64,000 nucleotides of DNA from Pseudomonadota bacterium (GTDB taxonomy: Bacteria; Desulfobacterota; Desulfobacteria; Desulfobacterales; JBDRRP01), in contig JBDRRP010000121.1 in the NCBI GenBank assembly GCA_043825735.1, positions 1-64,000 of the forward strand, written 5' to 3'. Positions 9,321 to 54,979 of the stretch are shown here, in pieces. Every line of letters begins with the position of its first letter. Within the stretch, counting starts at the first letter, position 1. The notes under the pieces are model-generated. The model was given only the letters and a program-made list of their open reading frames with translations. It ran no database searches and was not told the origin of the DNA. The translations under genes and the position numbers were made by a program.

Positions 9321-11564
9321 ATGAAGAAAATCTTTCGTCTCAATCCCTATAAAATCTCGTTCCTCATCACCGTCATCGGTCTTATCGGATATCTCGTGGG
9401 TCTGCCGATTTTGGATCTCATGGAACTCAAGACCATCGATCTGAGATTCCGTTTCCGGGGCAACATTACGGCGAGCCCCGACGTGGCGCTGGCTGTGATC
9501 GACGAAAAGAGCGTCAACGAGGAAGGCAAATGGGTCTGGCCCCGGTCAAAAATCGCCGCCCTCATCGACAAGCTGGATGCTTCCGGCGCCCGTGTCATCG
9601 GTTTTGATATCGGCTTTCTCGAACCTGACGACCAGCGCGTCGTCACTGCCTTGTCAAAGCTGGAAGCAGATCTTGCCACCCAGCAGCTGTCAAACGAGGC
9701 GATCGCCAAGATCGTCAGCGCTCTCAAAACGCAGACCGATGAAGACGCCCTGCTGGCGGAGGCCATCAAACGGTCCAAAGCAAAAATCGTACTCGGGTAC
9801 TTCTTCCACATGGGAGATGTCGATCTGAGGCACGTGGATGAGGCCACCATTCAGCAGCACACGGAAAACATCAAGGGCGGCAGCCACAAATTTGTTCGAT
9901 ATGCCTCCGCCGAAGCCCAGCGCGCCCCGCTCATCGCGGCTCAAATGCCCCAGTCCAACATCGCCCCGCTGGCTGCGGCGACACGCTACGCCGGATTCTT
10001 CAACATGATCCCCGACGAAGACGGCGTCGTCAGATGGATCCCAGCGGTGGTCAAGTTCCGCGACACGCTCTACGCGCCGTTGTCTTTCATGGCCGCCAGT
10101 GCATACTGGGATGAGCCCCTGTCGGTTTCCGTGGCCGATACCGGCGTTGAATCCGTCAATATCGGCATCCGTTCGGCACCCACCGATGAATACGGGCGCG
10201 TTCTCATCAACTACCACGGCCCCCAGGAAACCTTTCCCCACCTGTCCATCACGGATATTCTTCACGACCAGATCCCCAGGGAGGCCATCGAAAACCGCAT
10301 CATTCTGGTGGGGGCGACAGCGGTCGGCATCTACGACCTCAGGGTCACGCCCTTTGGCAACGTATTTCCCGGGCTTGAAGTACACGCCAACATGGTCAGC
10401 AGCATTCTCGAATCCGATTACCTGCATAAGCCGGGCTGGGGAGCCATCTTTGACATCATGGGCATGGTGAGCTGCGGCTTTTTGCTGGGATTCATTCTCG
10501 CCAGAACCGGTGTTATCGCGGGTGGGGTTGCGGCCGGTGTTTTCATGACGATCTATATCCTCGTTTGCCTGTATCTGTTCAGCAGCCGTGGGCTGGTGGT
10601 AAACATGGTCTACCCGCTGACCGTGCTGCTGCTCACCTACAGCGCTATCACCGCCTACAAATACCTCACGGAAAGCCAGCAGAAGAAATTCATCAAAGAC
10701 GCCTTCTCCACCTACATGGCACCGGCAGTGGTCAAGCAGCTCATCGACTCTCCCGAATCGCTGGTGCTTGGCGGCGAGGAACGCGAGATCACCGCCTTCT
10801 TTTCAGACGTGCAGGGGTTCACCAGCATCTCCGAAAGCCTCACGCCGGCCGAACTGGTGGAACTGCTCAATGAGTTTCTCACCGAGATGACCGATGTCAT
10901 CCTGGCGCACGAAGGCACGGTGGATAAATTTGAAGGCGACGCCATCATCGCCTTCTTCGGAGCGCCGAACGTCATGGAAAACCATGCGGAAGTGGCATGC
11001 ATGTCATGCATCGACATGCAGTTGCGGCTTGAAAAACTGCGCCGCAAATGGCGCAGCGAAGGCAAACCGGAGCTGCACATGCGCATCGGTCTGGCCTCCG
11101 GCCTTGCCGTAGTGGGAAACATGGGGTCCAAAAATCGGATGGACTACACCATGATGGGCGATACCGTCAACACGGCCGCGCGCCTGGAAGGCGTCAATAA
11201 AGTCTACGGCATCTACACCCTCATCAGCGACGCCACGCGGCAAGCCGCCGGCGACATCATCGTCACCCGCGAAATCGATGCCATCAACGTCGTTGGAAAG
11301 GGATTGCCCATCACCATTTACGAAATCCTGGGCTACTCCGGCAATACCGATGCGCAACTGCTCCAGGTGGCCGACGAGTATTCGCTGGGTCTGGCCGCCT
11401 ACCGGCAACGGGACTGGAACCGGGCCATCATCCATTTTAACAAGGCGCTGAGCATCGCCCCCGCAGACGGTCCCAGCAAGACGCTGCTCAAGCGTTGCAA
11501 TGAATTCAAGCAATCGCCGCCGACCCCCGACTGGAATGGCGCATTTGCAATGACACACAAGTAG
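9321..11564 (+). CDS. CHASE2-domain membrane adenylate cyclase (class III) with C-terminal TPR-like helix pair
   Basis: N-terminal TM; CHASE2 motifs (VIDEKS..GKWVWPR, DEDGVVR, PGLEVHAN); 3 TM; FSDVQGFT, DKFEGDAI, DYTMMGDTVNTAARLEG. Confidence 0.93.
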   Translation: MKKIFRLNPYKISFLITVIGLIGYLVGLPILDLMELKTIDLRFRFRGNITASPDVALAVIDEKSVNEEGKWVWPRSKIAALIDKLDASGARVIGFDIGFLEPDDQRVVTALSKLEADLATQQLSNEAIAKIVSALKTQTDEDALLAEAIKRSKAKIVLGYFFHMGDVDLRHVDEATIQQHTENIKGGSHKFVRYASAEAQRAPLIAAQMPQSNIAPLAAATRYAGFFNMIPDEDGVVRWIPAVVKFRDTLYAPLSFMAASAYWDEPLSVSVADTGVESVNIGIRSAPTDEYGRVLINYHGPQETFPHLSITDILHDQIPREAIENRIILVGATAVGIYDLRVTPFGNVFPGLEVHANMVSSILESDYLHKPGWGAIFDIMGMVSCGFLLGFILARTGVIAGGVAAGVFMTIYILVCLYLFSSRGLVVNMVYPLTVLLLTYSAITAYKYLTESQQKKFIKDAFSTYMAPAVVKQLIDSPESLVLGGEEREITAFFSDVQGFTSISESLTPAELVELLNEFLTEMTDVILAHEGTVDKFEGDAIIAFFGAPNVMENHAEVACMSCIDMQLRLEKLRRKWRSEGKPELHMRIGLASGLAVVGNMGSKNRMDYTMMGDTVNTAARLEGVNKVYGIYTLISDATRQAAGDIIVTREIDAINVVGKGLPITIYEILGYSGNTDAQLLQVADEYSLGLAAYRQRDWNRAIIHFNKALSIAPADGPSKTLLKRCNEFKQSPPTPDWNGAFAMTHK

Positions 11565-11618
11565 AAAAACGCTTGTTCAAAAAGTTCAAATTGACATTAT
11601 CTGAACCATTGAATTGGT

Positions 11619-11703
11619 TACCACAAAGAACACGAAGTTCACGAAGAAAAGTATTAATAATGGGTTGCAAAAATCTTCGTGCGCTTGGGTAACTTTGTGG
11701 TGA
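11619..11703. repeat. Inverted 9-nt-period arms around an AT-rich spacer
   Basis: ACCACAAAGAACACGAAGTTCACGAAG ... CTTCGTGCGCTTGGGTAACTTTGTGGT. Confidence 0.8.
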
Positions 11704-11738
11704 TCAAAACGCGGCCAGCCTCGCAAAGGATTGAAGTC

Positions 11739-14279
11739 ATGGGGATATTCAAACGGCATCCGATGGTCGTTACCGGCATGAGCATTACCGTATTGTTTTT
11801 GCTGCTCAACATCGTCCGGGTCGGTTTTCTCGACACGCTTGAGCTCAAGTTCTACGATATCCGGATGAATCTGAGGACATCACCGGACAGCGAGAGCCAC
11901 ATTGTCATCGTGGACATCGATGACGACTCCATCGAAAAACTCGGCCGGTGGCCGTGGCCCCGAAACATCATCGCCCGGGGCGTGGAAAAAATTAATGAGG
12001 GAAAGCCCAAGGTCATCGGCCTCAACCTGATCCTCAGCGAGGCTGAACGCAGCCCCGGGCTCGGGCCTTTACAACAACTCCAGGAACAATTCACCGCATC
12101 CCTGCTGGGACTTACCGGCGAAGACGGCCAGCGGTTTATCGCCGCCATCCAGAACCACATTCAGCAATTGGACAATGACCGCATCCTGGCCAGTGCCATC
12201 GGCGCATCGGGGAATGTGGTTCTGCCCGTCTATTTCAAATCGGGTGTTTCCGGCAGCAGTCTCTCTGCCGAGGATGCCGCGCTGTTGAAAAACCAGATCA
12301 TCACCCAGATCATCGATCCCACCGGCTATGGTCTTCCCCAAGCCAGCGATGTGGTTCTACCGACGGTGGCGTTCTTCTCAGCGGCCAGCGGCATCGGTCA
12401 CATCAACCTGGCTTACGACATGGACGGCACGGCCCGCAGGGAACTTCTCCTTTACGACTACAACGGCATGGTGGTTCCCGCCTACACGCTGCGCCTGGCT
12501 TGCCAGTTTCTCAACGTCAATATCAAAAACGTCAGCGCGGAGTTGGGAAGTCACATTAAGGCCGGCACCAACATCCTTCCGCTCACTCCCCAGTCCTCGT
12601 TTCTGGTGAGCTTCAAAGGGCCTCGGGGATCTTTCAAGCGGTATGCCTACTTCGATGTGATCAACGACAAGATCCCCCTGCAGGTCTTCCGCAACAAGCT
12701 CGTTCTGGTGAGCGCCTCGGCATCGGGAATCATGAATCCGCTCAGCACCCCCACCGATTCCACCATGCCCTACGGAGAGTTCTCGGCCCACACCATCTGG
12801 TCCATCCTCAACCGGCAATACATCAGCGAGCCCCAGTGGGGCCGCACTGCCGAGCTGATCATGATCCTGGTGATCGGGCTGATTATCACATTCGTGCTGC
12901 CGCGGATGAAAGCGATACTCGCCGGTATCGTCTTCTGGGTGCTGGCCCTGGGGCTGGTGGGCGGCGCCACCGCGCTTTTCGTGGCAGAAGGGATATGGGT
13001 GGGCATGACCTACCCGCTGCTTCAGCTCATTTTGGGCTATATCGGTGTATTGAGCATCAAATACTTCGTCACCGAAACCGGCAAGGAAAAGATGGAAGGC
13101 GAGTCGGCTGAAACCAACCGTATGCTGGGCCTCAGCTTCCAGAACCAGGGCATGCTCGATATGGCCTTTGACAAGTTTCGCCGGGTACCGGTGGACGATC
13201 AGGTGAAAGACCTGCTCTACAACCTGGCGCTGGACTATGAACGAAAGCGCCAACTCAACAAGGCGGCGAGCGTATTTGAATACATCGAAAGTCACGACCC
13301 CAAATTCAAGGACGCGGCAGGTCGCAAGCGAAAGCTCATGCAGGCCAGTGAAACCATGGTCTTTGGCGAAGGGGGGCTCGGCGGCGGCGGCGGTGGAGAC
13401 GGTCTTCTGGCGACCGGAACCGACACCCGTCCAACACTGGGCCGATACGAAATTATTAAGCAACTCGGCAAGGGGGCCATGGGGATCGTCTATCTGGGCC
13501 AGGACCCGCGCATCAACCGCACCACGGCGATCAAGACCTTCCGTTTCGGTGAAGACTTCAGCCCCGAAGAGGCCGAAAAGCTCAAAGAAAAATTTTTCAG
13601 AGAGGCCGAAAGCGCCGGGACCTTGTCCCACCCCAACATCGTCACCATCTATGATGCCGGCGATGAGCAGGATCTTGCCTATATCGCCATGGAGTTTTTA
13701 GAAGGTACCGATCTCGAAGCCCACACCAAGAAGGGTAGCCTTTTGCCAATCCGGCAGGTCATCGACCACGTGGGCAATGTCGCCGACGCACTCGGCTACG
13801 CCCACGACAAGGGTGTCGTTCACCGGGACATCAAGCCCGCCAACATCATGCTGCTGAAAACCGGGGTGGTCAAAATCACCGACTTCGGCATCGCCCGGAT
13901 CACCGCCACCTCACAGACGCAGACCGGCGTTGTGAAAGGGACCCCTTACTACATGTCGCCCGAGCAGTTTTCAGGAGAAAAGGTCGACGGCCGCTCAGAC
14001 ATCTTCTCCCTGGGCACCATGCTCTTCCAGATGCTGACCGGTGAGCTGCCTTTCCGGGCCGACAGTCCGCCGGCCCTCATGCACCAGATCATGAATGTCA
14101 AACACCCGGATCCGAGAACGCTGAACCCGAAGATTGTCAAGCCGCTGGTTACCATCATCGACAAGGCACTGGAAAAGGATCGGGCCAAACGCTACCAGAA
14201 AGCCGCCCAGATGGGCGCGCACCTCAAGGAACTGGGCAGACGCATCGATGCGGTGGTGGCTAAGAAAAAAATTGATTAA
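11739..14279 (+). CDS. CHASE2-domain membrane Hanks-type Ser/Thr protein kinase
   Basis: CHASE2 (IVDIDDDSIEKLGRWPWPR), 3 TM, TPR-like segment, kinase GKGAMGIVY, AIK, HRDIKPAN, DFG, GTPYYMSPE; ATG 11739 preferred. Confidence 0.93.
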   Translation: MGIFKRHPMVVTGMSITVLFLLLNIVRVGFLDTLELKFYDIRMNLRTSPDSESHIVIVDIDDDSIEKLGRWPWPRNIIARGVEKINEGKPKVIGLNLILSEAERSPGLGPLQQLQEQFTASLLGLTGEDGQRFIAAIQNHIQQLDNDRILASAIGASGNVVLPVYFKSGVSGSSLSAEDAALLKNQIITQIIDPTGYGLPQASDVVLPTVAFFSAASGIGHINLAYDMDGTARRELLLYDYNGMVVPAYTLRLACQFLNVNIKNVSAELGSHIKAGTNILPLTPQSSFLVSFKGPRGSFKRYAYFDVINDKIPLQVFRNKLVLVSASASGIMNPLSTPTDSTMPYGEFSAHTIWSILNRQYISEPQWGRTAELIMILVIGLIITFVLPRMKAILAGIVFWVLALGLVGGATALFVAEGIWVGMTYPLLQLILGYIGVLSIKYFVTETGKEKMEGESAETNRMLGLSFQNQGMLDMAFDKFRRVPVDDQVKDLLYNLALDYERKRQLNKAASVFEYIESHDPKFKDAAGRKRKLMQASETMVFGEGGLGGGGGGDGLLATGTDTRPTLGRYEIIKQLGKGAMGIVYLGQDPRINRTTAIKTFRFGEDFSPEEAEKLKEKFFREAESAGTLSHPNIVTIYDAGDEQDLAYIAMEFLEGTDLEAHTKKGSLLPIRQVIDHVGNVADALGYAHDKGVVHRDIKPANIMLLKTGVVKITDFGIARITATSQTQTGVVKGTPYYMSPEQFSGEKVDGRSDIFSLGTMLFQMLTGELPFRADSPPALMHQIMNVKHPDPRTLNPKIVKPLVTIIDKALEKDRAKRYQKAAQMGAHLKELGRRIDAVVAKKKID

Positions 14280-14312
14280 GACAATCAGTGGGTTAGAACC
14301 CTATCGCGGATC

Positions 14313-14341
14313 TTGACCCGCCCAATTGAATTGTGTATACA
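14313..14341 (+). promoter_or_regulatory. Putative internal sigma70 promoter upstream of the PP2C/FHA genes
   Basis: TTGACC-17 nt-TATACA. Confidence 0.3.
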
Positions 14342-14441
14342 TTCATGATTGCCGTTAAATGCTGCCATCGGCGCGCACGCGGTGTTTCCCCCTGCCGGTC
14401 GACGCTTTTACGGATTTCGGATTGATGACGGAGACGTGCTT

Positions 14442-15272
14442 ATGTTTGTCGTCGAGTCTGCCGGCATGACCGATGTGGGCAGAAAACGCAAAAACAACGA
14501 AGATGCGCTTTTCATCGATGACAAGCAGAATCTGTACGTCGTTGCCGACGGCATGGGAGGCCACCGCGCCGGCGAAGTGGCCAGTATGATCGTCATCGAC
14601 ACCATCCGTGAGTTCATGCAACGACCAGTTGACGCTGACGCAGCGGAAGATCTTCCACTTCCGGACGACACGCTGTCGGCAGAAGCAAACAGGCTGGTTG
14701 CAAGCATCCAAATGGCCAATCTGGAAGTTCACGAAACGGCCAGGAGCAAAGAAGTATTCAACGGGATGGGCTCGACTGTCTCGGCAATCATGTTTTCCGA
14801 TGAGGCCATGATTGCCGCCAATGTCGGTGACAGTCCCATTTACCTGATCCATAATGGCAAGATTGAACGGCTCTCGGTGCCCCATAATGTCATTACCGAG
14901 CAGGCGGCCATTGATCCTGACGCCGCTCAGAAAATCGGAAAAGCCTTCGGGCACATGCTGACGCGTGCCATGGGGCTGACCGAAACGGTCCAGGCCGATG
15001 TCTCTGAAATCCCTGTATTCAGAGGGGATAAGATCGTCATCAGCTCCGACGGACTCAGCGACAAGGTGAGTCCTGAAGAAATCCTTGAAGTCATGTCAGG
15101 CAGTAGCGTTCAAGAGGCATGCCGCACACTGGTCCAAATGGCCAACGACAGGGGCGGTGACGATAATGTGACGGTCATCACGTTACATGTAAACGCTGTG
15201 TCGCACAGCGACAGCGGCCTCGCCGGATGGATGGTTCGAATTTTTTCGCCGCTGAAAAAGTTATTTTCCTAA
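14442..15272 (+). CDS. PP2C/PPM family Ser/Thr phosphatase (Stp1/PrpC-like)
   Basis: TDVGRKRKNNED, VADGMGGHRAGEVAS, GMGST, NVGDS, SSDGL, GGDDNVT. Confidence 0.95.
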   Translation: MFVVESAGMTDVGRKRKNNEDALFIDDKQNLYVVADGMGGHRAGEVASMIVIDTIREFMQRPVDADAAEDLPLPDDTLSAEANRLVASIQMANLEVHETARSKEVFNGMGSTVSAIMFSDEAMIAANVGDSPIYLIHNGKIERLSVPHNVITEQAAIDPDAAQKIGKAFGHMLTRAMGLTETVQADVSEIPVFRGDKIVISSDGLSDKVSPEEILEVMSGSSVQEACRTLVQMANDRGGDDNVTVITLHVNAVSHSDSGLAGWMVRIFSPLKKLFS

Positions 15273-15287
15273 TAATGAGGTCATAAC

Positions 15288-15986
15288 ATGCCGATCATCA
15301 CTTTAAAGTTCAAAGACAACGTCCTTGGCGAATACCGCATCGGAGAGGGAAAATCGCTGACCATCGGCAGAAAGGATAGCAACGATATCCCTATTGAAAA
15401 CCTGGCGGTTTCCGGCCACCACGCTAAAATCGACGCTGTCGGCGACGGCTACCTGCTCACCGATCTCAAGAGCAAAAACGGCAGCTTCGTCAACAAGACC
15501 CTGGCCTCATCCCACTGGCTCCAGGAAGGCGATGTCATCCTCATTGGCAAGCACACCCTGGTGTTCTCCTATGCCGAAGGCGAGGATCGCCCCGCCCAGG
15601 TCCAGAACATGGACCAGACAATGGTCATGGACACCGACAAATACCGTGAGATGCTGGCCAAGGCGGCGCCTGCCAATGGGCAGGCCAAAAAGGCCGCCAT
15701 CGGCGTGCTCTCCTACCTGTCCGGCGGTGAAGGCGAGGTGGAACTCGTCAAGAAACTGATCAAGATCGGCAAAAACAGCGCCAACGACATCGTCGTGGGA
15801 GGGCTCATGATGGGCCAGACGGCAGCCACCATCAGCAAGCGGCCCAACGGCTACTCGCTGGCCTATGTCGAAGGCATGACCAAACCCAAGGTCAACGGCG
15901 AAGTGGTGAAGGAATCGGTCATGCTCAAGGAATTTGACAACATCGAAATCGGTTCGGTCAAGTTCCAGTTTTTTATCAAGTCCTGA
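15288..15986 (+). CDS. Double FHA-domain protein
   Basis: FHA1: IGR..NDI....AVSGHHA...DLKSKNGSFVN; linker with DQTMVM; second degenerate FHA (IGKNSANDI...KVNG...DNIEIG). Confidence 0.9.
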   Translation: MPIITLKFKDNVLGEYRIGEGKSLTIGRKDSNDIPIENLAVSGHHAKIDAVGDGYLLTDLKSKNGSFVNKTLASSHWLQEGDVILIGKHTLVFSYAEGEDRPAQVQNMDQTMVMDTDKYREMLAKAAPANGQAKKAAIGVLSYLSGGEGEVELVKKLIKIGKNSANDIVVGGLMMGQTAATISKRPNGYSLAYVEGMTKPKVNGEVVKESVMLKEFDNIEIGSVKFQFFIKS

Positions 15987-16009
15987 CCACCACTTTACTA
16001 AATACCACC

Positions 16010-16047
16010 ACCGGCAGGGGGAACAGTTCCGCTGCCGGTTCTTTTTG
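16010..16047 (+). terminator. Rho-independent terminator between the convergent operons
   Basis: Stem ACCGGCAGGGGGAAC/GTTCCGCTGCCGGT followed by TCTTTTT. Confidence 0.7.
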
Positions 16048-16056
16048 TCAGCCGCG

Positions 16057-17904: not shown

Positions 17905-17930
17905 CGTTAGGGTCTCCTGAAACGGTGGTG

Positions 17931-19361: not shown

Positions 19362-19518
19362 CTTTTCCCCTCCATGGATTGAAAATTCTCCGCAGCCGCC
19401 TCAATGTCATTTTGAAATGTGCGCCAGCGTTCTATGGCAGGTTAGTGAACTCTCGCAGTGCCGTCAAGCGACTTTGCTCCCATTCATCGTCAGGTTCACT
19501 CGCGCCCCCGTTCTCAGC

Positions 19519-19554
19519 AAAAAGGGCACACGACGGTGCGCCCGCCGTGTGCCC
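19519..19554 (-). terminator. Rho-independent terminator after the giant FecR gene
   Basis: GGGCACACG/CGTGTGCCC stem with A5 on + (U-tract on -). Confidence 0.65.
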
Positions 19555-19576
19555 AAGGACGAATTTTGCTTCAGTG

Positions 19577-22500
19577 TTATTCTGGGCCGCTCAAATTGGC
19601 GTTCGTGACGACGCCGGCGCCGGTTCCGGTGAACGTTGAATCGCTGGTATTCTGGCCGGCCGCTGCGCCGTTGAAACTGACATCCCAGTTGGCACCGGAT
19701 TCGTTGATTGCGGCCACGCTCCCGGAGCCGCTTTCAACGGTGGCCCCCCAGGTGCCGCCAGTGCCGGCGGCCCAGTTTTGGACAACAAAATTCGCGGTGG
19801 CGAAACCCGTAAGTGGCACCGTGTCCGTAACGGCCGGCGTCGACCCAAAAAAACCGGAAACCGCATCCGTAGCCCATACCGTCGGCGGCGTGCCCATGGC
19901 GCTCGCTGCAAAGAACGTAATGTTGTTCATAGTAACGTAAAGATTGCCGTCGTTGCCGGAAAGACTGCCATTGCCGACTTCCCAGCTGGGGATATTCATA
20001 GCGTCGAGCACCTCATGGGCACCGTTTCTCACGCTGGCCAGATAGGCCGGCGTGTCCATGCTCACCGTGGCGGCGCCGGCGACCCAGGTGCCGGAAGCCC
20101 AGGTGGCGGGATCAGCCGGATCGAACAGGCCTTTCAATTCCCCGCCCATGACGCCGGTCATCCCGTCGTCCCAGTGGACCCAGGCGCCGTTGACATCGCC
20201 CCCGAACCGATTAATCGGAGGGTCGGCCGGGAGTTTCTTACCCCAATCGTCTCCCATGACCTGAATGAAATGCAGCGTGTCGGCATCTTCCAGCACCAGG
20301 CTAAGCTGCCACGGCGTATCGGCATCGCCGCCGAACCCGCTGGCGATTCCGGCCAGAGCGACAGCAGTGGCACTGGTCGGGCCACCGCCGCCCGGTGTCG
20401 GTACCGATTCCCAGGCGATCTCCGAAAGGGTGATAGTGCCCGGGCCGCCGCCGTAAGAGCCTTCCTGAAAGATGATACCGCTGCTGCTCAGGTAATTGCT
20501 GAAGCCGTCCATACCCGGCAGCAGGGTGGCCTCCAGATCCCAGTACCCTCCCGGACCCTCGGCTAAAAACCCGTCATTCATGTAATACGCCTGGCCGCAA
20601 TCGATACGGCCCGTATAAAGTGCCGGGTCGCTGCCATCGGCGCTGCTGCGGATGGCCACCATCGCACCGGTGATCAGCCCCTGATCATCTACAGCACCCA
20701 CGGCGCCAACACCGTAGAGATCCGGGTCGGTCTCTGTGACGGCCTTTCCCTGACTCCAGGCGGCCCAGAGATAATTGGCGCCGCCGTAGTTTTCCTCGAA
20801 ACCGAAATCCCCCAGCCCCCAGACCTTCAGTGTTTCATCTGCGTTTTCGATACCGCCTAGAAGGCCCCGAGTGTCGGCGACATCGAAAAAACCGCCATAG
20901 TAGAGGCTATCGTTGTTGTGTGAAGCATCCCAGTAAAACATACCCTGCTGCCCATCGATGCCCCATTCGGCAGAGAAACTCAGAGGCTGGGTCGATTCGT
21001 AACTGCCGACGCCGAGGCCGATCCATGTGCCAGCGTTTGATCCTTCGGAGGCAAAAGGACCGATCGATGCCTCATACAGCCCCCAGAACGGCCCGCTCAT
21101 CTGGCCGCGATGGGAATAGGTCATGTAGTTGCCGTCAAGGCCGCCTTCAATGGTACCACCGTCGTACCAGGTGCTCTCGACGTGTGCCAGCCAGTACCCT
21201 TCATCCCTATCCCGCACGCCGAAAGCGCCGTGCCCGCCGAGAGTGGCGCTCCAGTCGACAGTGCCCTCCGGTTTATCCGCAAAAACACCCGGATCCCCTG
21301 AGCCATCGCCGAGTTTAATGTTGTAAACGCCGAACGGCAGACTGACAGTCTGCCCCAAGTCCTCGTCATAGTAGTTGATGAACCGGCTGCGGGCGGTGTA
21401 GCCGCCTGCGGAACTCGTGCCCTCCAGGCCCTCCGTGTAAAACTGACCGTCCAGATAGGCATCGAAACCGATGAAGGCCCTGTCGGCTTCGGCGGTGTCG
21501 ACATTGTATGCGGCGGGCACCAGTGCAGCCATATCCCGACCGGTCAGGTCGCCTTCCAAAATCCAGAAGCCGCTATTGTCAGCCCCTGCCAGATGGATGC
21601 CATAAACGGGGCCTTCGATCATATGAACCGAGCCCAGCGGATCGTATACCAGCGAGGCGGTGTATAAATACTGATCTGCGAAAATGTCATCGATCGCATT
21701 ACCCGACCAGATCCCGCCGCTATAGCCGGCCACACCGCCGACGCCGCTCGAATCGCCGACCGTGTCGGCGGTCAGGGAAACGCTCCAAAGATACGGCGCC
21801 CCTGGTCCGGTGTCGGTATACGCGCCCATGCCGATCAGCAAGTAGTCCCCATCACCATATTCGGTAAGGCCCAAGAGTCCCGTCAGATCGCCCGCGCTGC
21901 CGATCGTGCCGGCGTCATTGCCGATAAGGTTGGCCTGCGGGCCGCCGATGTCGCCGCTGTATGACAGCTCGGTGAATGCCTCGTAAATACCGACGCCGGC
22001 GCCGATCCATGTGCCGGTGGATTCACCGGGGTCATCGAAGAGTCCGAATAAATTGCCGAACATTTCTCCGTAATGGGTCCGGGTAAGGTACGGGCCATAC
22101 AATTCACCGTCGATGATGCCGGAGTCCCCGCTGCCGTAAGGGAGCCAGTAGGTATCGGCAAATGTCATCCAGTATCCTTCATCCCCGGGGGCCGCGCCGA
22201 AGACGCCCTCGCCACCCAATATCATGGCGGCATCGGGGTCCCCCGACGGTTTTCCCGTGAAACCGGTGCCTTCGCCGTCGCCGATCCGGAGACTGAAGAC
22301 ACCGTATGGCAGGGACACGGTGTTATCGTCATTCGCGATGTAGGTGGTCTCCAGCAGGGTGATGCCCCCGTAAATACTGCCGGTGTCGCCCTCATAGTCC
22401 CAAAAGGTTCCGACCAGGCCACCGCCGCTGGTCGACTGACTGCCAAGCTGGGCGTCTGCGACGCTGTAACCCTCCGGTACCGTCATTTCCGCCCTATCCA

Positions 22501-25500
22501 TCGTCGCCGAGGCATCCCAGATGCCGCTGGCGCGGGTGGCGTCCATCTCGTAAAAAGTCCCCCCCATGATTCCCATCAGCAAGCTCACTGTGTCCTCAGG
22601 GGTAGCGATGAGCATCGCTGCGGCGCCGGGTACCATATCTCCGCGCCGGTCCGTATCAGCGCCCTTCATCCAAATGCCGGCCGAATAGCCGCCGCTGTAA
22701 CCGGGGTTTCCCACCGCCATCCCATTGAGTCCAGTGCTCCACAGATAGGGCCCCCCGTATCCGGATTCGAGGCCGCCGAAGCCGTCGTCCGTATAGGTGC
22801 CCATGGCGAGCAGTTCATAATCGCCGCCGACGCCCGGATAAATACCGAAAATGCCCCCTTCGTTGCCGGCGACATCGATACTGCCCTCACTGTTGTAATA
22901 GAGGGTGCTGTCGCCCCAGTCGCCGCTGTAGGCCAGTGGATAGGTGCCGGCCCAGCCGCCGACGACCTGGTTGGTCCACTCTCCCATGGTCCCTGGATCC
23001 GTAAAGCCGGCAATATCGCCCCTCACAGTGCCGAACCAGGTTTCAGTGAGATAGCGGCCGTTTTCCAGATATCCGGTGACCTCCCCGTCATCATTCCAGA
23101 AAATGTCGGCGTCGGCCCGCCAGTAGCCCTGGTCCGAGTCATTGGAGCCGAAAACGGCGGCGCCGCCGATGGTGGCGGTAAAGCTGTTGACGCCTTCGCC
23201 CCGGGTGAAATCGCCCTTGCTGAGCTGAAGGCTGAAAATGCCCATGGGAATCGTGTCGCCCAGGACCGATTCGATATTCCATGACAGGGTGTCGATCGTC
23301 GGCGCCGTGAGGGTGATGTCCGTGTCAAATTGCGGATACAGCCTGACACCGTCAAAATCACCGGTTGCCGACCGGGTGGTGTAGTTGCCGATCGATGTCG
23401 TGGCCGAGGCGTACCGTGCCCAGTCGCCGTTCAGTTCCCAGATATCGAGCGCGTCATCCCAGGTCCCGCTCGCCTGGCCGTAGAGCAGGCCCGCGTGCCC
23501 GCCGCTGGCGAGGTAGGGCGTTTGGTAAAGCCCGTAGATGTGAACATCGGTGATCGTACCGTCGGGTTTCCAGAGTCCTGCGGCCACGGCCTGGACCACC
23601 CGCTGATCGGCCGCCGACTCGGAAATGGGCCATTGATCCGATCCCTGGAACCCGGTCGCGAAAATATGTATACTCCCGGGCGCGGAAAGGCTCCCTATGG
23701 TCCCCAGTGCCCAGAAATCCGACGATGTTGTCACCCACGGCGCTGAAAGGCTGCCGATGGCCGCGCTAAAGTCACCGCCATCGGTACCGATCGCGGCACC
23801 GTCTTTAAAAAAGAGCCCCGAGCCGTTTTCATCCTGGATAATGGTTCCGCCCCAGGCAAGATCCTGGGATTCAAAGGTACCCACGCTGGAGGCGATCCAG
23901 GTGCCGCTTTCATCGGGCGGGGCGTCGGCACCGGTATTTTGACCAAACACCGGCCCTGTGAAGGCGCCCCGATGGGTGGCGGTCTGATAGACACCGCTCA
24001 GATTACCGGTGATTTCTCCGTCCGCGGTCCAGTTGCCGGCGAGATCCGCCGCATAAAACATGGGGCCGCCGGAGCCGTCACTGGTGTAAGTGCGTCCGCC
24101 CAGGCGCGCCGACCAGACGGTATAAGTCCCATCGCCCGGTCGCTGGAACGTATTGCCGTCTCCCAGGCGAAAATCATAGATGCCCCAGCCGGTGGCCGCG
24201 GATTCCCTATCCCAGAGAGAGATGAACATTGACAGGTCGTCGAGGCCGCCGGTGATGAGACCGGCATAATCGCTGGTGGCGGTGCTGATAAATGCGCCGG
24301 AAAGACCGGATGCGGCCATCCACTGTGGGGAGATGGATGCGCTGTTGGACAGGGTTTCTTTATAGGAGGACGACAGCGTCCCGCTGACGGACCACATATC
24401 GACCCCCTCGAACCAGTTGCCGGCCAGACTGCCGGCCATGACCCCGGCCCGGCCGTCCGGGGCCAGGGTGAGGCTGGCCGCGTAACCCGCAAAGGTGCCG
24501 TCGGCCTTCCACAAGCCGTTGGCAAAGCCCATGAGACTGCCGTCATGTTCTCCCGGCGCTTCGATGCCCCAGCCCTGGAGAAACGAGTTGAGAAGATAGC
24601 TGGTGGCCGGCGGGCCGGCAGTGTAGCTGTAATCGCCCATGGCGAAGAAATCCACGGTAGCGCTGTCCCATGGGGCCGAAAACCCGCCGAAAAGGCCTTC
24701 ATCGCTGCCTTCGCCAAACTCACTGAAACTGCCGGTGTCGCTTTTGTAGAGAGTCCCCGCACCCCCGCTCCACTGACCGCCGTAGCGCATGAGATCCAGG
24801 GTGGCGGTCCCCTGCTCGATGCTGCGGTAGTTAGTGCCGTCTCCGTCATGGGTGCCCCGCTGCCAGAGGCTCAGCGCACCGAGGTAGTCGCTATCGATAT
24901 AGGTCAGCGGCTGGTCATTGTAACCGGAAAGGGCCACGTGCCCGGCGCCGTCGTCGCTGCCCTCGATGAAGCCTAACGTGTAGCCGTTGCTACCTGTTTG
25001 GCCATAAAGCGTCACAAAGGAAGTGCCCAGCAGAGATGCATCCACCGAACCGCCGCTGGTCTGGAGCGTCCAGACACTGAGAATGCGCTCACGCCCCGTG
25101 GAAACGCCTGTCGCATCAATACCGGTGATCATCTTGTTGGCGACGCTGAAGCCGCCGCCGGTACCGATGCTTCCGATCTCCGGCAGCCCGCTCAGCAGGG
25201 TTGACAGGGGAGCGCTGATATCGGTCCCGGAGCCGGCAATGCCCAAAGCATTGGTGCGCCAGGCCGGTCCCTTAGCCGACAGGCTCCCTCCGGAAAGGCT
25301 TCCCGGCAAAAGACTGTAGACATAACCGGCCTTGGCGTCGGCAGCGACATAGATGCCGTTATAAAGTCCTTCCCACGAGCCCACGGTGCCTCCCAGAAAC
25401 CCCACGAAACCGCCGCCGGTATCCATATCCCCGTCGGCCCGCTGGGCGGCGGTATTCCCGCCGGCGTACTGCGCATTGACCTCAAAAGTGCCGGTATTTG

Positions 25501-26332
25501 TTTTGTCGCTGATGCTGCCCTGCAAGGTTCCATCGAAGGCCCCAGGCCCCAGAGCCGCTGAAAACAGGGTGTATGTATCCGTGGATGGGCTTGGCGGGTT
25601 CGGCGGCGTGTCGATCGTGCCGCCGTCAGACACCTTGTCTCCATCGACGGGGTCATTTGACGGTGGCGGACCCTGCGTGTCATCGACTTTGGTATCGCCG
25701 CTGGCTTCCCCGTCGTCGTCTTCAAGAACCAGATCTTTGTCCAGTGCGGGCCGGATCACCGGCGGCTTGTCGGCGGAAACCACCACCATGGACTGGCCGG
25801 CTTTGACCTCTCTCACCTCGTCGGGCTGATTGGCGCTGAAGGCGTAGACGACGCCCGATTTAACTGCCGACTCGGAAATTCCATCAATGAAGGATACGAA
25901 AAAGTCGGTACCACGCACGCCGCAGACGGCCGTTGGGGTATGCACCTCGTAGCGGTTTTCATTTTGCTTGCTGAAAAAGCCCGCGGCGCGGGTAACGATA
26001 TTCTGCACCTTTCCTTCAAAAAGGTTGAAGATGCTCTTGGACGTCTTCGCATCGCCCTGGTACTGGGTGATGCGTACCCGGCTGTTGGCGGCCAGACGCA
26101 TGATGCTGCCGTCGGCAAAGGTGATCTCGGCCTGCGATTGGCCACGAGTCAGTACTGTCTGCCCTTCATCGACAGCGTCGCCGAGCGTTGCAACGACCGG
26201 CGGCTTTCCCGGCGGGACGATTGCGACGGCGCCTTTGACCTGGGTCAACGTTCCAACACCGGCTGCCGCAAACGCAATGAACACCCACGACAGCAACACC
26301 GCTGCCACGCACATGCCATATCGCCGTTTCAT
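19577..26332 (-). CDS. Giant (2251 aa) secreted FecR-domain protein with ~310-aa beta-rich internal repeats
   Basis: Signal peptide; FecR motif FADGS..RL...TPTAVCGVRGTDF; acidic/Pro linker; Gly/Asp/aromatic-rich repeats with recurring G(T/E)WxxxxVG, (E/Q)GYW and GxYxTxxHxG motifs. Confidence 0.85.
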   Translation of the reverse strand: MKRRYGMCVAAVLLSWVFIAFAAAGVGTLTQVKGAVAIVPPGKPPVVATLGDAVDEGQTVLTRGQSQAEITFADGSIMRLAANSRVRITQYQGDAKTSKSIFNLFEGKVQNIVTRAAGFFSKQNENRYEVHTPTAVCGVRGTDFFVSFIDGISESAVKSGVVYAFSANQPDEVREVKAGQSMVVVSADKPPVIRPALDKDLVLEDDDGEASGDTKVDDTQGPPPSNDPVDGDKVSDGGTIDTPPNPPSPSTDTYTLFSAALGPGAFDGTLQGSISDKTNTGTFEVNAQYAGGNTAAQRADGDMDTGGGFVGFLGGTVGSWEGLYNGIYVAADAKAGYVYSLLPGSLSGGSLSAKGPAWRTNALGIAGSGTDISAPLSTLLSGLPEIGSIGTGGGFSVANKMITGIDATGVSTGRERILSVWTLQTSGGSVDASLLGTSFVTLYGQTGSNGYTLGFIEGSDDGAGHVALSGYNDQPLTYIDSDYLGALSLWQRGTHDGDGTNYRSIEQGTATLDLMRYGGQWSGGAGTLYKSDTGSFSEFGEGSDEGLFGGFSAPWDSATVDFFAMGDYSYTAGPPATSYLLNSFLQGWGIEAPGEHDGSLMGFANGLWKADGTFAGYAASLTLAPDGRAGVMAGSLAGNWFEGVDMWSVSGTLSSSYKETLSNSASISPQWMAASGLSGAFISTATSDYAGLITGGLDDLSMFISLWDRESAATGWGIYDFRLGDGNTFQRPGDGTYTVWSARLGGRTYTSDGSGGPMFYAADLAGNWTADGEITGNLSGVYQTATHRGAFTGPVFGQNTGADAPPDESGTWIASSVGTFESQDLAWGGTIIQDENGSGLFFKDGAAIGTDGGDFSAAIGSLSAPWVTTSSDFWALGTIGSLSAPGSIHIFATGFQGSDQWPISESAADQRVVQAVAAGLWKPDGTITDVHIYGLYQTPYLASGGHAGLLYGQASGTWDDALDIWELNGDWARYASATTSIGNYTTRSATGDFDGVRLYPQFDTDITLTAPTIDTLSWNIESVLGDTIPMGIFSLQLSKGDFTRGEGVNSFTATIGGAAVFGSNDSDQGYWRADADIFWNDDGEVTGYLENGRYLTETWFGTVRGDIAGFTDPGTMGEWTNQVVGGWAGTYPLAYSGDWGDSTLYYNSEGSIDVAGNEGGIFGIYPGVGGDYELLAMGTYTDDGFGGLESGYGGPYLWSTGLNGMAVGNPGYSGGYSAGIWMKGADTDRRGDMVPGAAAMLIATPEDTVSLLMGIMGGTFYEMDATRASGIWDASATMDRAEMTVPEGYSVADAQLGSQSTSGGGLVGTFWDYEGDTGSIYGGITLLETTYIANDDNTVSLPYGVFSLRIGDGEGTGFTGKPSGDPDAAMILGGEGVFGAAPGDEGYWMTFADTYWLPYGSGDSGIIDGELYGPYLTRTHYGEMFGNLFGLFDDPGESTGTWIGAGVGIYEAFTELSYSGDIGGPQANLIGNDAGTIGSAGDLTGLLGLTEYGDGDYLLIGMGAYTDTGPGAPYLWSVSLTADTVGDSSGVGGVAGYSGGIWSGNAIDDIFADQYLYTASLVYDPLGSVHMIEGPVYGIHLAGADNSGFWILEGDLTGRDMAALVPAAYNVDTAEADRAFIGFDAYLDGQFYTEGLEGTSSAGGYTARSRFINYYDEDLGQTVSLPFGVYNIKLGDGSGDPGVFADKPEGTVDWSATLGGHGAFGVRDRDEGYWLAHVESTWYDGGTIEGGLDGNYMTYSHRGQMSGPFWGLYEASIGPFASEGSNAGTWIGLGVGSYESTQPLSFSAEWGIDGQQGMFYWDASHNNDSLYYGGFFDVADTRGLLGGIENADETLKVWGLGDFGFEENYGGANYLWAAWSQGKAVTETDPDLYGVGAVGAVDDQGLITGAMVAIRSSADGSDPALYTGRIDCGQAYYMNDGFLAEGPGGYWDLEATLLPGMDGFSNYLSSSGIIFQEGSYGGGPGTITLSEIAWESVPTPGGGGPTSATAVALAGIASGFGGDADTPWQLSLVLEDADTLHFIQVMGDDWGKKLPADPPINRFGGDVNGAWVHWDDGMTGVMGGELKGLFDPADPATWASGTWVAGAATVSMDTPAYLASVRNGAHEVLDAMNIPSWEVGNGSLSGNDGNLYVTMNNITFFAASAMGTPPTVWATDAVSGFFGSTPAVTDTVPLTGFATANFVVQNWAAGTGGTWGATVESGSGSVAAINESGANWDVSFNGAAAGQNTSDSTFTGTGAGVVTNANLSGPE

Positions 26333-26465
26333 CTGACGCCTCCTGGCCGATATCCGGCCCTTCCCTCGCCCTCACGGCTTCAAGGGAAAAATCGCCCGTG
26401 ACGCAGTGGTTTCATCTTACAGCGACCCTCCACGGTTCGTCAACGTATCCATGGATGGGCACCAG

Positions 26466-28022
26466 TTAGAACCGATACTCTAAGCCCGCCGAAAAGATAC
26501 TCCGGTTGTAATCGTAAATGGCGACATTGGAAAATTGGCGGGTGTACGTGTACTGGACAATCAGCATGAGGTCTTTCATCAGGTCAAAATTTACCCCGCC
26601 TGTGGCTTGATATATGTCGTCACGCCGTTGCTCGAAAACGGCTGTCCCCACACCGTTGATAACCCTCGGATCGGGGCTTTCATTGTCGTAAAATTTGTAA
26701 AAAGCCTGCAGCCCCAGTTGAAAGCGCAGCCGCTGCGTAGCGGGAATCGTCGTGTTGGCGACGATCTGATAGCCCTGGTTGCTCCACCAGGCACCATTGG
26801 CATTTTCATCGATATAAGCCAGCCGTATGTTGGCAAAAAGACCTGCGGCATTGGACCACAACCAGCTTATATAGGTACGGAAAGCATCCGAATCCCTGTC
26901 AGCGGCGTCCACTGTCGCCGGGAGGGTAAATTCCTTCTTATCGTATCCGGCGAACACCTCGAGCACCTGTGCGGGCTTCAACACATAGCGCCACATAGGG
27001 CCGATACTGAAATACTGGGAGGCCTCCTGGTAATAAGGGCGCTTTTTGGATGCGTAGTTATAGTTGGCGGCGATGTTGAGCGAGTAGCGACCGAAATCAT
27101 AACCCGGCACCATATAAAATCCACCGGAGAGGGTGTCATTGTCGGTGGATTGATTTTGGTAAAGGCTGCCAGAAAAAACACCTTGAGCGTTGAACAGCCA
27201 CTTTCCCGGTACAAGCGGCCGGTAATCCACCCGCAGACTGCCGTTGAGTCCCGGGCTATAGGACGGGACGGCTCCGGGCCATGGCGGCGCGTCGTTGGTG
27301 TCGTTCCAGCGCAGCAGCAGGTTGGAATCATAGAGACCGGACACGGAGGCCGTGAACCGCCATACGTCTTCCAGGCGCTTGTCCACGGAGTCCTGGTATT
27401 GCCGAGCGAAGCTGGCGAGATCCGAACCGGGATCAAGCAGAACCACCTGCCGAAGCCGCTCTTTGGCGGCGTCCAGGTTCTTGGCTCGAATGAGGTTCAT
27501 TGCGATCTGAAAATCAGATGACTGTCCGTAGGCGGGGTCCAGCTTTTTAGTCGCCTCGAATGCCTCGACAGCGTCATCGTAGCGCCCCTGCTTGCCACAA
27601 AGCAGCCCCTTGAGAAAAGTAATTTTGGCCGGGGCGAAGCCTGCTTTTTCCGCCACACCGATCCATTTCTCCGCAGCGGTCAGATCACCCGGTTGCCCCA
27701 TCCTGATCAATACGTCAACCAGTTCCACAAGGGCTTCCTGAATGGGCGGACTCAGTTCCACCGCATTCTGAAATTGACCGGCGGCCTTGGAGTACTCGGC
27801 CAGTTGTTTGTAGGTCAGCCCAAGAAAAAATGCAGCCGTGCTCGAACCGGGTTCTTTCTCCCGGGCCTTGAGAAAAGCCGCCTCCGCTGCCAGATAGGCG
27901 CTTTGCTTGTAAAGATCGATTCCTTGCAGCAGTTCCGGGCTCTCGGCCCTGACGGCAGTGGCCGGAAACAGACCGGCGACTGTCGCTACCAGAATCATGG
28001 CCAGCGTTGACAGGTACTTCAA
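26466..28022 (-). CDS. TPR plus outer-membrane beta-barrel protein (Slam-like), second paralog
   Basis: Signal peptide, multiple TPRs, LYDSNL first-strand motif, RRDD near C-terminus, beta-signal SAGLEYRF; SD GAGGAGG. Confidence 0.8.
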   Translation of the reverse strand: MKYLSTLAMILVATVAGLFPATAVRAESPELLQGIDLYKQSAYLAAEAAFLKAREKEPGSSTAAFFLGLTYKQLAEYSKAAGQFQNAVELSPPIQEALVELVDVLIRMGQPGDLTAAEKWIGVAEKAGFAPAKITFLKGLLCGKQGRYDDAVEAFEATKKLDPAYGQSSDFQIAMNLIRAKNLDAAKERLRQVVLLDPGSDLASFARQYQDSVDKRLEDVWRFTASVSGLYDSNLLLRWNDTNDAPPWPGAVPSYSPGLNGSLRVDYRPLVPGKWLFNAQGVFSGSLYQNQSTDNDTLSGGFYMVPGYDFGRYSLNIAANYNYASKKRPYYQEASQYFSIGPMWRYVLKPAQVLEVFAGYDKKEFTLPATVDAADRDSDAFRTYISWLWSNAAGLFANIRLAYIDENANGAWWSNQGYQIVANTTIPATQRLRFQLGLQAFYKFYDNESPDPRVINGVGTAVFEQRRDDIYQATGGVNFDLMKDLMLIVQYTYTRQFSNVAIYDYNRSIFSAGLEYRF

Positions 28023-54704: not shown

Positions 54705-54979
54705 GGTCACCTCCTTTGCAGGGTAAAAAAACAAAACGGCGGGGCCCTTCACATCAAGCTCCCGAAGGTCGGCAGGCATCCTGCTTCGGGCACCCGCAAC
54801 CGGATCTCGGACATGTATATTATACCTGCCGTCAGGTGTAAATGCCAGGTCCCCAAGCGAGGGGTGTTTATGGATGCATTTGGTTTGAACGGGAAGAAAA
54901 GGGAGAAATTGCAGAGCGATGGAAACGACCCGTGACAGAGACGTCCGCACGAACGGTGGCACCGATTTTCAGCTGCCTG

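Follow-up and report, generated by a model that had tools for sequence, protein, structure and literature searches.

Gene content of the locus

We analysed a window of 64,000 nucleotides (the whole stretch of DNA under study), in which a preliminary description had placed eight contiguous genes, in two convergent arrays. The list of open reading frames and Pfam matches bear this out; all eight genes are real and intact, at the coordinates below:

9321 to 11564, + strand: CHASE2 class III nucleotide (adenylate) cyclase, predicted, 747 aa (Pfam CHASE2 E 7e-59, Guanylate_cyc E 3e-22)
11679 to 14279, + strand: CHASE2 Hanks-type Ser/Thr kinase, 866 aa (Pfam CHASE2 E 2e-54, Pkinase E 1e-53)
14349 to 15272, + strand: PP2C-family Ser/Thr phosphatase (Pfam PP2C_2 E 3e-18)
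15288 to 15986, + strand: two-FHA-domain protein, phospho-threonine reader (Pfam FHA, two stretches, E 4e-22)
16057 to 17904, - strand: cargo 1, FecR protein, 615 aa (AF2, Foldseek, family profile)
17931 to 19361, - strand: barrel 1, Slam/DUF560-family outer-membrane protein, 476 aa (SlipAM and TPR_Slam matches of family members)
19524 to 19554, - strand: terminator-like hairpin 3' of cargo 2 (13 pairs, 10 of them G-C, and a T run; consensus match only)
19577 to 26332, - strand: cargo 2, FecR protein, 2251 aa (Pfam FecR E 7e-14)
26466 to 28022, - strand: barrel 2, TPR and C-terminal barrel, 518 aa (TPR and weak BBP2 matches in Pfam; HHalign to the barrel 1 family)

The + strand thus reads cyclase, kinase, PP2C and FHA protein, and the - strand barrel 2, cargo 2, barrel 1 and cargo 1, with gaps from left to right across the eight genes of 115, 70, 16, 71, 27, 216 and 134 bp. 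ATG 11739 and ATG 14442 appear to be the likelier starts of the kinase and PP2C genes, respectively. The hairpin and T run after cargo 2 suggest that the two barrel-cargo pairs would be read as separate transcripts; the hairpin search found 28 such sites, against 18.4 in shuffles. A promoter scan stayed at chance level (9 sites vs 8.4).

The two cargos and two CHASE2 receptors that had been counted are indeed those of the locus, but the count is only local, since a third CHASE2 cyclase lies at 51103-53256 of the window, the genome has five CHASE2 genes, and another barrel-cargo pair lies elsewhere in it, on contig C17. Region-4 and receptor-barrel searches of the window's contig (C121) were blank, in agreement with the earlier claim that ECF sigma factors and TonB-dependent receptors are missing. 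Neither an ECF sigma factor nor a TonB-dependent transducer was found on C121 or C17, and visual inspection of the 60 commonest neighbour clusters revealed no cluster of the sigma/TonB type.

The barrels are related to Slam pores

Neither window barrel matches PF04575 on its own at E<=0.1, and it is through their homologues that they are classed as Slam-like. In the barrel 1 family, SlipAM (PF04575) was found in 50 of 57 members and TPR_Slam in 57 of 57 at E<=0.001, the latter domain falling below cut-off in barrel 1 itself. Barrel 1 is 52% identical to its C17 paralogue, whose SlipAM match spans 1-288 of 288 and is above the cut-off. The TPR of barrel 1 is N-terminal and the protein ends in a C-terminal Phe; its family profile retrieved only TPR proteins from the PDB. 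Both barrels carry a TPR domain (Pfam). PF04575 was found in a minority of the 120 homologues of barrel 2 listed, and not in barrel 2 itself. HHalign between the two family profiles yielded a probability of 99.4 (E 7e-22, 466 columns). These sequence comparisons place barrel 1 in the Slam/DUF560 family and make barrel 2 a distant homologue of it, and they support the Slam-like barrels of the preliminary description.

The cargos share a FecR head and differ in their C-termini

Cargo 1 comprises a signal peptide, a FecR head (~48-258), a disordered linker (264-315), a handle (323-462) and an 8-stranded TbpB-like barrel (474-594). Its AF2 model (pLDDT 84) matched TbpB, NHBA, fHbp, HphA and PupR in Foldseek, and its family profile matched TbpB 5kkx (E 8e-9) and also NHBA; TbpB_B_D was detected in 23 of 77 family members. 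By sequence and model, cargo 1, encoded next to a barrel gene, has a predicted C-terminal TbpB-type 8-stranded barrel, as do substrates of the T11SS (type 11 secretion; Slam/DUF560).

Cargo 2 is very acidic and Gly-rich. A signal peptide is followed by the FecR head (26-205), an acidic Pro-rich linker, repeats of ~315 aa with a half period of 153 aa, and a C-terminal domain pair; we estimate a string of ~13 barrels. The last 310 aa are predicted to form two conserved 8-stranded all-beta domains in tandem (AF2 pLDDT 89), for which Foldseek returned no match at E<=0.001. With VIA, the best Z was 6.6, to 8-stranded barrels, fHbp reached 4.1 and none reached 8, the last domain being barely covered. 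The best ESM Atlas score was a weak 0.85, and a homologue search with this C-terminus gave 2 matches. This absence of a significant structural match does not show a new fold. Neither Pfam nor Foldseek gave a significant TbpB match for cargo 2; an exported C-terminus of TbpB-like kind is supported for cargo 1.

Both cargos begin with no more than a hydrophobic, signal-peptide-like segment (hydropathy), directly followed by FecR. That the cargos are lipoproteins was rejected, a lipobox-like motif being present in 7 of 409. The notion of an exchangeable cargo is supported, as C-termini differ between loci. Indeed, many barrel partners are only FecR plus a disordered tail, which makes the FecR head the constant part.

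Ordinary T11SS secretion could also account for these proteins: the complete cargo with its FecR head would be released or shown on the surface, where it would act as an adhesin or capture a ligand, and the cyclase would only be inherited alongside, to regulate expression or to watch for cargo left in the periplasm. With its SPI-type signal and C-terminal 8-stranded barrel, cargo 1 is laid out like the soluble cargos described in parts of PMC8406197, and the length of cargo 2-type proteins varies as in adhesins, from about 600 to over 3500 aa. On the other hand, some partners end without a barrel, and none of the four CRP-like sites with <=2 mismatches lies upstream of the barrels: all are intragenic, the best (15167) within the PP2C gene.

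The FecR head is related to a retention plug

A further argument against full release comes from the head itself. Its profile matches PDB 5IX9 (E 1e-10) over positions 14-96 of 209 only. Cargo 2 alone also matches 5IX9 (E 0.002), and a match to NCBIfam retention_LapA (E 7e-4) is under the family cut-off. 5IX9 is identified as the RIN plug in parts of PMC5550230. Profile comparison thus shows homology between this periplasmic retention plug of T1SS adhesins and the head's N-terminal half, which would link cell-surface signalling with adhesin anchoring. As in the RTX adhesins MpIBP and LapA, the head is followed by a linker that is thin and by long repeats rich in beta structure. In contrast to them, the head extends to a full FecR domain, the export route would be Sec/Slam rather than T1SS/TolC, and Pfam found no RTX families in the cargos at E<=0.1.

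The cleavage position of E. coli FecR, G181-T182, aligns to a conserved Gly-Thr column (E 1e-5 for one sequence), where 382 of 397 aligned heads have Gly and then either Thr or Ser; the position is Gly175-Thr176 in cargo 1 and Gly141-Thr142 in cargo 2. The Paracoccus and Shinella trios of barrel, cargo and cyclase have Gly-Ala here, so cleavage is not universal. Parts of PMC12036975 report that the self-cleaved pieces of E. coli FecR remain bound until force parts them.

The FecR beta-solenoid fold (PupR in Foldseek) and the Gly-Thr position are shared with the anti-sigma factors FecR, FoxR and PupR. A classical anti-sigma role of the cargos was rejected, however: unlike those proteins, they come without a cytoplasmic anti-sigma domain, a transmembrane or inner-membrane anchor, an STN domain, an ECF sigma factor or a TonB receptor, and the outer membrane is where the proposed tether would be suspended.

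A CHASE2 cyclase accompanies FecR cargos

The cyclase has, by hydropathy, a transmembrane segment at 10-36, a periplasmic CHASE2 domain and three more transmembrane segments at ~373-443, before the catalytic domain (488-660) and a C-terminal TPR. Motifs at 493, 534 and 608 retain two Asp, which we take to bind metal, Lys and Thr/Asp, which we take to select the purine, and the Asn and Arg. The 9321 protein has the hallmarks of a class III adenylate cyclase, and a preference for ATP is predicted. It is 63% identical to the cyclase of the triad locus L017. Its CHASE2 domain had no match among PDB sequences.

Of 105 FecR-selected loci whose flanks were long enough, 96 had a barrel gene upstream of FecR at a distance of <=2 kb. 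When loci were selected by their barrel, CHASE2 lay no more than 5 kb away in 13 of 18 whose cargo combines FecR and TbpB (about 0.7% expected by chance), vs 0 of 4 whose TbpB cargo is without FecR, two of which carry TPR and CsgG-like heads. The barrel is thus repeatedly found with a FecR-TbpB cargo and a CHASE2 cyclase, and recurrent co-localisation is what the preliminary description had made its reading depend on. Trios are both convergent and co-directional, and occur on Paracoccus and Shinella plasmids, in Geobacteraceae and in Nitrospirota. CHASE2 was present in 127 of 134 FecR-positive genomes vs 23 of 67 FecR-negative ones, a comparison favoured by a FecR profile built from CHASE2-adjacent genes; within families, the figures were 22/24 vs 4/14 (f7) and 6/7 vs 0/14 (f8).

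The linkage is rarer for type-2 cargos, of which 2 of 10 (barrel-2-selected), 11 of 78 (GTDB; 10 of 39 with full flanks) and 1 of 79 (metagenomes; 0 of 16 with full flanks) had CHASE2 nearby. In a mirror-tree of 35/43 paired loci, given the cyclase, the values were 0.39 for FecR-CHASE2 and 0.34 for barrel-CHASE2, and the signal is not specific. That most type-2 pairs are without nearby CHASE2 favours ordinary secretion, but the fact that CHASE2 linkage tracks the FecR head in TbpB cargos does not, and we consider that reading unlikely.

A functional link could also be missing altogether, with two or three unrelated modules side by side. The kinase operon is usually elsewhere in the genome, and no CHASE2 gene was found within the 20 kb read around the C17 pair. 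Yet recurrence across several gene orders and phyla, together with the co-occurrence within families, makes this highly improbable, as does a Campylobacterota cluster of like content (described in parts of PMC9239204).

The kinase operon is mostly a separate module

The kinase retains its Gly-loop, Lys, HRD and DFG motifs; the PP2C protein matches NCBIfam Stp1 with E 4e-59, under the family cut-off. A barrel adjoined none of the 18 kinase-PP2C-FHA loci, and a FecR gene only one. The operon is hence mostly a separate module, a separately conserved switch that stands here between cyclase and cargos.

This bears on the cognate pairs first suggested as possible. Spelled out, each cargo would have its own CHASE2 receptor in the locus, one signalling to cAMP and the other, that of cargo 2, to the kinase. 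A few loci resemble such an arrangement: in family f139, L265 has kinase, PP2C, FHA, barrel and FecR genes co-directional, and L267 has FHA, barrel and FecR genes at a contig end; L074 has a small FecR gene 3' of FHA, and L023 has barrel 1 and a cargo ~6 kb from FHA/PP2C/kinase. However, the kinase-linked FecR proteins (L265, L267) are short and form a clade apart from both window cargos, and the CHASE2 neighbour of cargo 2 relatives, where there is one, is a cyclase (both of our phylogenetic trees are quick trees). Because the operon mostly stands alone, the idea of two cognate pairs finds no support, and we give it a slim chance. Pairing cargo 2 with the kinase was rejected as the default.

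A proposed relay across the envelope

The best model, with a probability of roughly 0.55, is a three-part trans-envelope relay, in which a tether retained in a pore is read by the cyclase. The cargo, with its hydrophobic N-terminal segment and no lipobox, would be exported by Sec and fed into its dedicated Slam-type barrel. By analogy with the T11SS, the beta-barrel(s) or disordered tail at its C-terminus would reach the surface, and its linker of 43-117 residues would occupy the pore. The folded FecR head, too large for the pore, would stay in the periplasm as a plug, like the homologous RIN domain. It probably self-cleaves at the conserved Gly-Thr, the pieces presumably remaining bound as in FecR and FoxR. 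The periplasmic CHASE2 of the inner-membrane cyclase would sense the state of the head through a putative contact, and binding or pull at the surface would thus alter cAMP. The most probable unit is that of cargo 1, barrel 1 and the 9321 cyclase. A CHASE2 cyclase is probably also fed by cargo 2 and by the orphan C17 pair, and the kinase-PP2C-FHA operon may respond to a different class of FecR heads.

Counting against this model are the mostly CHASE2-free surroundings of type-2 cargos, the 23 genomes with CHASE2 and no FecR match, the unspecific mirror-tree, the Gly-Ala trios and the partial RIN match. So do parts of two papers: the S. meliloti FecR-domain gene smc02177 is dispensable for plant-signal perception by CHASE2 cyclases (PMC5498481), and secretion is complete for soluble T11SS cargos, HrpC among them (PMC8406197).

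As in T11SS systems (cargos TbpB, fHbp, NHBA, hemophilin/HrpC), the gene of a barrel with TPR and of the SlipAM family immediately precedes that of a protein with a signal peptide and a terminal 8-stranded barrel, and cargo 1 also shares the handle and TbpB-like barrel. Here, however, there is a FecR/plug head, no lipobox and a CHASE2 cyclase instead of TonB receptors; the barrels of cargo 2 have no TbpB match and some partners have no barrel. FecR and cyclases are absent from the main text of PMC12282271 and from the consulted parts of that of PMC8406197; one co-occurrence table in PMC12282271 lists FecR (FDR 0.24) and not CHASE2.

The system of Sinorhizobium meliloti formed by NsrA and CyaK/CyaD1/D2 is alike in that an outer-membrane component is needed to activate an inner-membrane CHASE2 cyclase, as we propose here. 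NsrA presumably has a FecR domain, which we observed in the NsrA-like proteins L102 and L103. In a split version of such a receptor, the barrel would bind the outside signal and a wholly periplasmic FecR protein, sitting on the TPR, would relay it to CHASE2, with no threading. L102 and L103 fuse FecR, TPR and barrel directly upstream of a CHASE2 cyclase, short FecR partners have no folded export domain, and CyaK signal perception requires NsrA, according to parts of PMC7529298. However, NsrA is a single protein of ~1200 aa with a ~600-aa barrel and no secreted cargo, whereas FecR and TPR-barrel are separate genes in the window. Homology to an NsrA-type barrel was rejected, since the C-terminal halves of the two NsrA-like proteins scored <4 bits against the window barrel profiles; the split NsrA receptor of the preliminary description survives as an analogy only. 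The TbpB-type barrel of cargo 1 marks T11SS substrates and the ~13 barrels of cargo 2 would better fit a surface structure. We find the split receptor quite unlikely.

Mo et al. (2022) proposed a single pathway for a Campylobacterota cluster of CHASE2 cyclase, phosphodiesterase, FecR protein and TPR protein, as described in parts of PMC9239204. This gene set matches that of the window, but the section on the cluster is without the Slam identity of the TPR protein, the cargo barrel, the plug homology, the cleavage site or a mechanism; a phosphodiesterase of that type was not seen at our locus, where a kinase operon is present instead. A Burkholderia operon (PMC5192318) likewise encodes a secreted FecR-domain protein beside a CHASE2 receptor, with a LysM peptidoglycan anchor instead of a pore tether and a histidine kinase as output.

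A broader possibility, which we regard as doubtful, is that bacteria widely possess an equivalent of adhesion GPCRs: a plug of the FecR/RIN kind, itself self-cleaved, would hold a Slam-exported surface protein in its pore, force on the exposed part would extract the C-fragment, and the freed periplasmic N-fragment would be the CHASE2 ligand for a cyclase, Ser/Thr kinase or histidine kinase.

Taken as a whole, the preliminary description is supported for the barrels, cargo 1, the linkage to a cyclase, the missing sigma factor and receptor and the exchangeable C-termini, and unsupported for cognate pairing. We found no paper linking Slam pores, the FecR head or plug and CHASE2 in the open-access literature searched. 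The secreted FecR head is a concrete candidate ligand for CHASE2. If the tether model is true, Slam pores would have a new job, that of holding a signalling tether, and our analysis suggests that contact at the surface may be reported through it to a cAMP sensor.

An intact eight-gene locus

The preliminary description set out an array of eight genes on two strands, and all eight open reading frames (ORFs) were found intact:

9321-11564, + strand: CHASE2 cyclase
next on the + strand: CHASE2 kinase, PP2C and FHA protein (the kinase operon)
16057-17904, - strand: cargo 1, a secreted protein with a FecR domain as its head
17931-19361, - strand: barrel 1, forming pair 1 with cargo 1
19577-26332, - strand: cargo 2, also FecR-headed
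26466-28022, - strand: barrel 2, forming pair 2 with cargo 2

Pfam assigns CHASE2 plus cyclase, CHASE2 plus kinase, PP2C and FHA domains to the + strand products; of the - strand products, two match TPR and two FecR. The locus matches the rest of the window in G+C, and homologues of its proteins come from Desulfobacterales and their relatives. The genome contains five CHASE2 genes. Its matches to ECF-type sigma factors and TonB receptors all lie on other contigs, in agreement with the claim that the window holds neither.

A third CHASE2 cyclase, with no FecR gene nearby, lies directly downstream of a 251-aa and a 317-aa ORF (all three within 51103-54962, - strand). Judged by reading its sequence, the 317-aa product resembles an M48-type peptidase lipoprotein, and this candidate may be another sort of periplasmic CHASE2 input. 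The 354-aa ORF at 28267-29331 (- strand) has no match in Pfam or NCBIfam; a similar protein precedes pgk in five fetched loci. Inside the PP2C gene, at 15167-15182 and some 105 bp ahead of the start of FHA, lies a CRP-like palindrome with one mismatch.

Barrels and cargos

As single sequences, neither barrel 1 nor barrel 2 matches SlipAM. The proposal that both are Slam-like holds for barrel 1, since 50 of the 57 members of its alignment match SlipAM; barrel 2 has no SlipAM match of its own and belongs to a homologous family by profile comparison (466 columns aligned, 99.4% probability). The last residue is Phe or Tyr in 55/57 members of the barrel-1 family and 112/117 of the barrel-2 family. 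A second barrel-cargo locus of the same genome, on contig C17 (8441-11676 of the fetched region), encodes a Slam barrel and a FecR-TbpB cargo that are 52% and 32% identical to the members of pair 1, the barrel scoring above the SlipAM cut-off across the entire model. No CHASE2 gene occurs within the 20 kb read around this pair, which may signal in trans.

The predicted model of cargo 1 (77 sequences, pLDDT 84) runs from a FecR solenoid through a low-confidence linker (43-117 residues in the 77 rows, median 67) and a handle to an 8-stranded barrel. Among its Foldseek matches are PupR, an anti-sigma regulator, as well as TbpB, NHBA, fHbp and HphA, and the family profile matches TbpB with an E-value of 8e-9. 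Cargo 2 repeats every 315 residues or so, with a half period of 153 residues. In a prediction from 75 sequences (pLDDT 89), its last 310 residues form two all-beta domains of eight strands each, with a weak likeness to small barrels (Z up to 6.6) and no Foldseek match at E≤0.001; from the repeat period, the entire body would consist of about 13 such barrels. Relatives of cargo 2 range from about 600 to more than 3500 residues. Many other barrel partners consist of FecR and a Pro/Thr/acidic tail and nothing else (27 hand-picked short proteins, of which at least two, from loci L161 and L293, appear to have a folded C-terminal portion).

Linkage of barrel, FecR cargo and CHASE2

Neighbourhoods were annotated by running our own profiles on mechanically called ORFs. 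Of 201 genomes of the class, 43 contain a match to the barrel-1 profile; from its 50 non-self rows, 40 loci were fetched (two of those omitted being second pieces of fetched genes), and 39 of them contain a profile match. The predicted recurrence of barrel, FecR cargo and CHASE2 was borne out: of the 18 loci whose cargo has both FecR and TbpB parts, 13 have a CHASE2 gene no more than 5 kb away, against 1/9 with FecR only, 0/4 with a TbpB cargo lacking FecR and 0/8 with no cargo seen, several of these loci being cut by contig ends. The chance expectation is about 0.7%, kin among the loci not being independent. Linkage is weaker for cargos of the cargo-2 kind: 2/10 in loci selected by barrel 2, 11/78 among the best 80 of 536 GTDB hits and 1/79 among the best 80 of 215 metagenomic hits. 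Of 157 loci, 105 have 3.5 kb or more of upstream sequence, and in 96 of these a barrel lies within 2 kb upstream of the FecR gene. Among 40 hand-chosen loci across phyla, a barrel occurs in 34 and CHASE2 in 15; of nine plasmid cyclases fetched from 40 listed, seven have a FecR neighbour and two (Paracoccus, Shinella) the entire trio of Slam-type barrel, FecR cargo and CHASE2 cyclase.

At the genome level, CHASE2 is present in 127/134 genomes with a secreted-type FecR match versus 23/67 without, a count biased because the FecR profile was made from CHASE2-adjacent FecRs. The co-occurrence persists inside families f7 and f8 and has no significance in eight smaller families. Caulobacter, Synechococcus and Deinococcus, the three controls in which CHASE2 is present, all have a FecR match.

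Other combinations were also seen. In L031 (1-2106) and L033 (10515-12830), the TbpB-barrel partner of a Slam-type barrel is headed by TPR and CsgG-like domains, not FecR, and the L033 barrel has a cNMP-binding Ser/Thr kinase and a PP2C in its vicinity. In Azospirillum (L101, 7623-11512), the gene after a CHASE2 cyclase encodes a two-partner secretion pore of the ShlB/FhaC kind, a different type of translocator as neighbour. In Shinella and Ensifer (L098, L099), the FecR/CHASE2-cyclase genes have as neighbours a cNMP-binding protein and ABC genes for NHLP bacteriocin export. Eight Geobacteraceae/Nitrospirota loci (L154 14531-15307 and seven more) share a neighbour from one conserved cluster, which resembles, by reading, an MBL-fold phosphodiesterase.

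The kinase operon is mostly separate

Twenty kinase regions were chosen by ORF length, of which 18, several stopping at contig ends, contain a CHASE2 kinase. PP2C and FHA genes follow it in 16 of the 18; a CHASE2 cyclase is nearby in two, one of which, L072, has the gene order of the window locus, and a FecR gene in one. None of the 18 has a barrel near the kinase, and in a quick FecR tree the CHASE2-linked relatives of cargo 2 adjoin cyclases, which argues against the suggested one-to-one match of the two cargos with the two CHASE2 receptors. Conversely, two loci of family f139 join such genes in one direction, L265 (3260-9820) with CHASE2 kinase, PP2C, FHA, barrel and short FecR, and L267 (2-3108) with FHA, barrel and short FecR; in the same tree their FecRs cluster away from both window cargos.

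The cyclase at 9321-11564 is closest (63%) to that of trio L017, whose barrel shares 50% identity with barrel 1 and whose cargo shares 35% with cargo 1. Taken with the kinase survey, these identities mark out cyclase, barrel 1 and cargo 1 as the conserved unit, with the kinase operon and pair 2 added to it.

The FecR head as a proposed plug

PDB 5IX9 is matched by a profile built from 44 FecR heads, with an E-value of 1e-10 and over the first half of the head only; cargo 2 alone matches it at E 0.002 and also, weakly, a LapA retention-module model. According to PMC5550230, 5IX9 is RIN, which is excluded by its size from the TolC pore and thereby anchors an adhesin. Furthermore, a conserved Gly|Thr column of the head, Gly175|Thr176 in cargo 1, aligns to G181|T182 of E. 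coli FecR. Gly followed by Thr or Ser occurs in 382/397 head rows (12 of 409 sequences were dropped as short or masked), and the search patterns used to gather the heads made no use of the conserved Thr. The Paracoccus and Shinella (alphaproteobacterial) trios have Gly-Ala at this position. FoxR self-cleaves at such a site via an N-O acyl shift (PMC11637429), and PMC12036975 describes FecR fragments that remain bound until TonB force pulls them apart.

Plug homology and cleavage-site conservation lead us to infer that the cargo, exported through the barrel, would be a tether retained in the pore, its head left in the periplasm, probably cleaved, and sensed by CHASE2 through a contact that would carry the signal. 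We give this reading a probability of roughly 0.55. Against it count the Gly-Ala of the two alphaproteobacterial trios, the mirror-tree signal, which is non-specific, the weak CHASE2 linkage of cargos of the cargo-2 kind, and a negative result for smc02177 (PMC5498481, section 17).

Very short FecR ORFs (about 150-170 aa) that end soon after Gly|Thr were also seen, for example G063:C17:43042, G015:C39:61692 and G145:C95:25027 (genome:contig:position), several with CHASE2 no further than about 1 kb away. Their sequences resemble a stand-alone N-fragment.

Relation to known systems

Earlier work records a Campylobacterota cluster of cyclase, phosphodiesterase, FecR and TPR (Mo et al., PMC9239204), Voronina-type operons of LysM-FecR and CHASE2 kinase (PMC5192318), NsrA-CyaK (PMC7529298 and PMC13001267), mtxA ahead of a CHASE2 cyclase (PMC4439547) and the definitions of the T11SS (PMC8406197 and PMC12282271). 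The system encoded here would function like a cell-surface signalling relay, yet belongs to neither the FecIRA nor the NsrA family. Within the open-access literature, the locus is a real, conserved and uncharacterised T11SS variant linked to cAMP signalling, to which the window adds the plug homology, the cleavage site, a giant tandem-barrel cargo and the separateness of the kinase operon.
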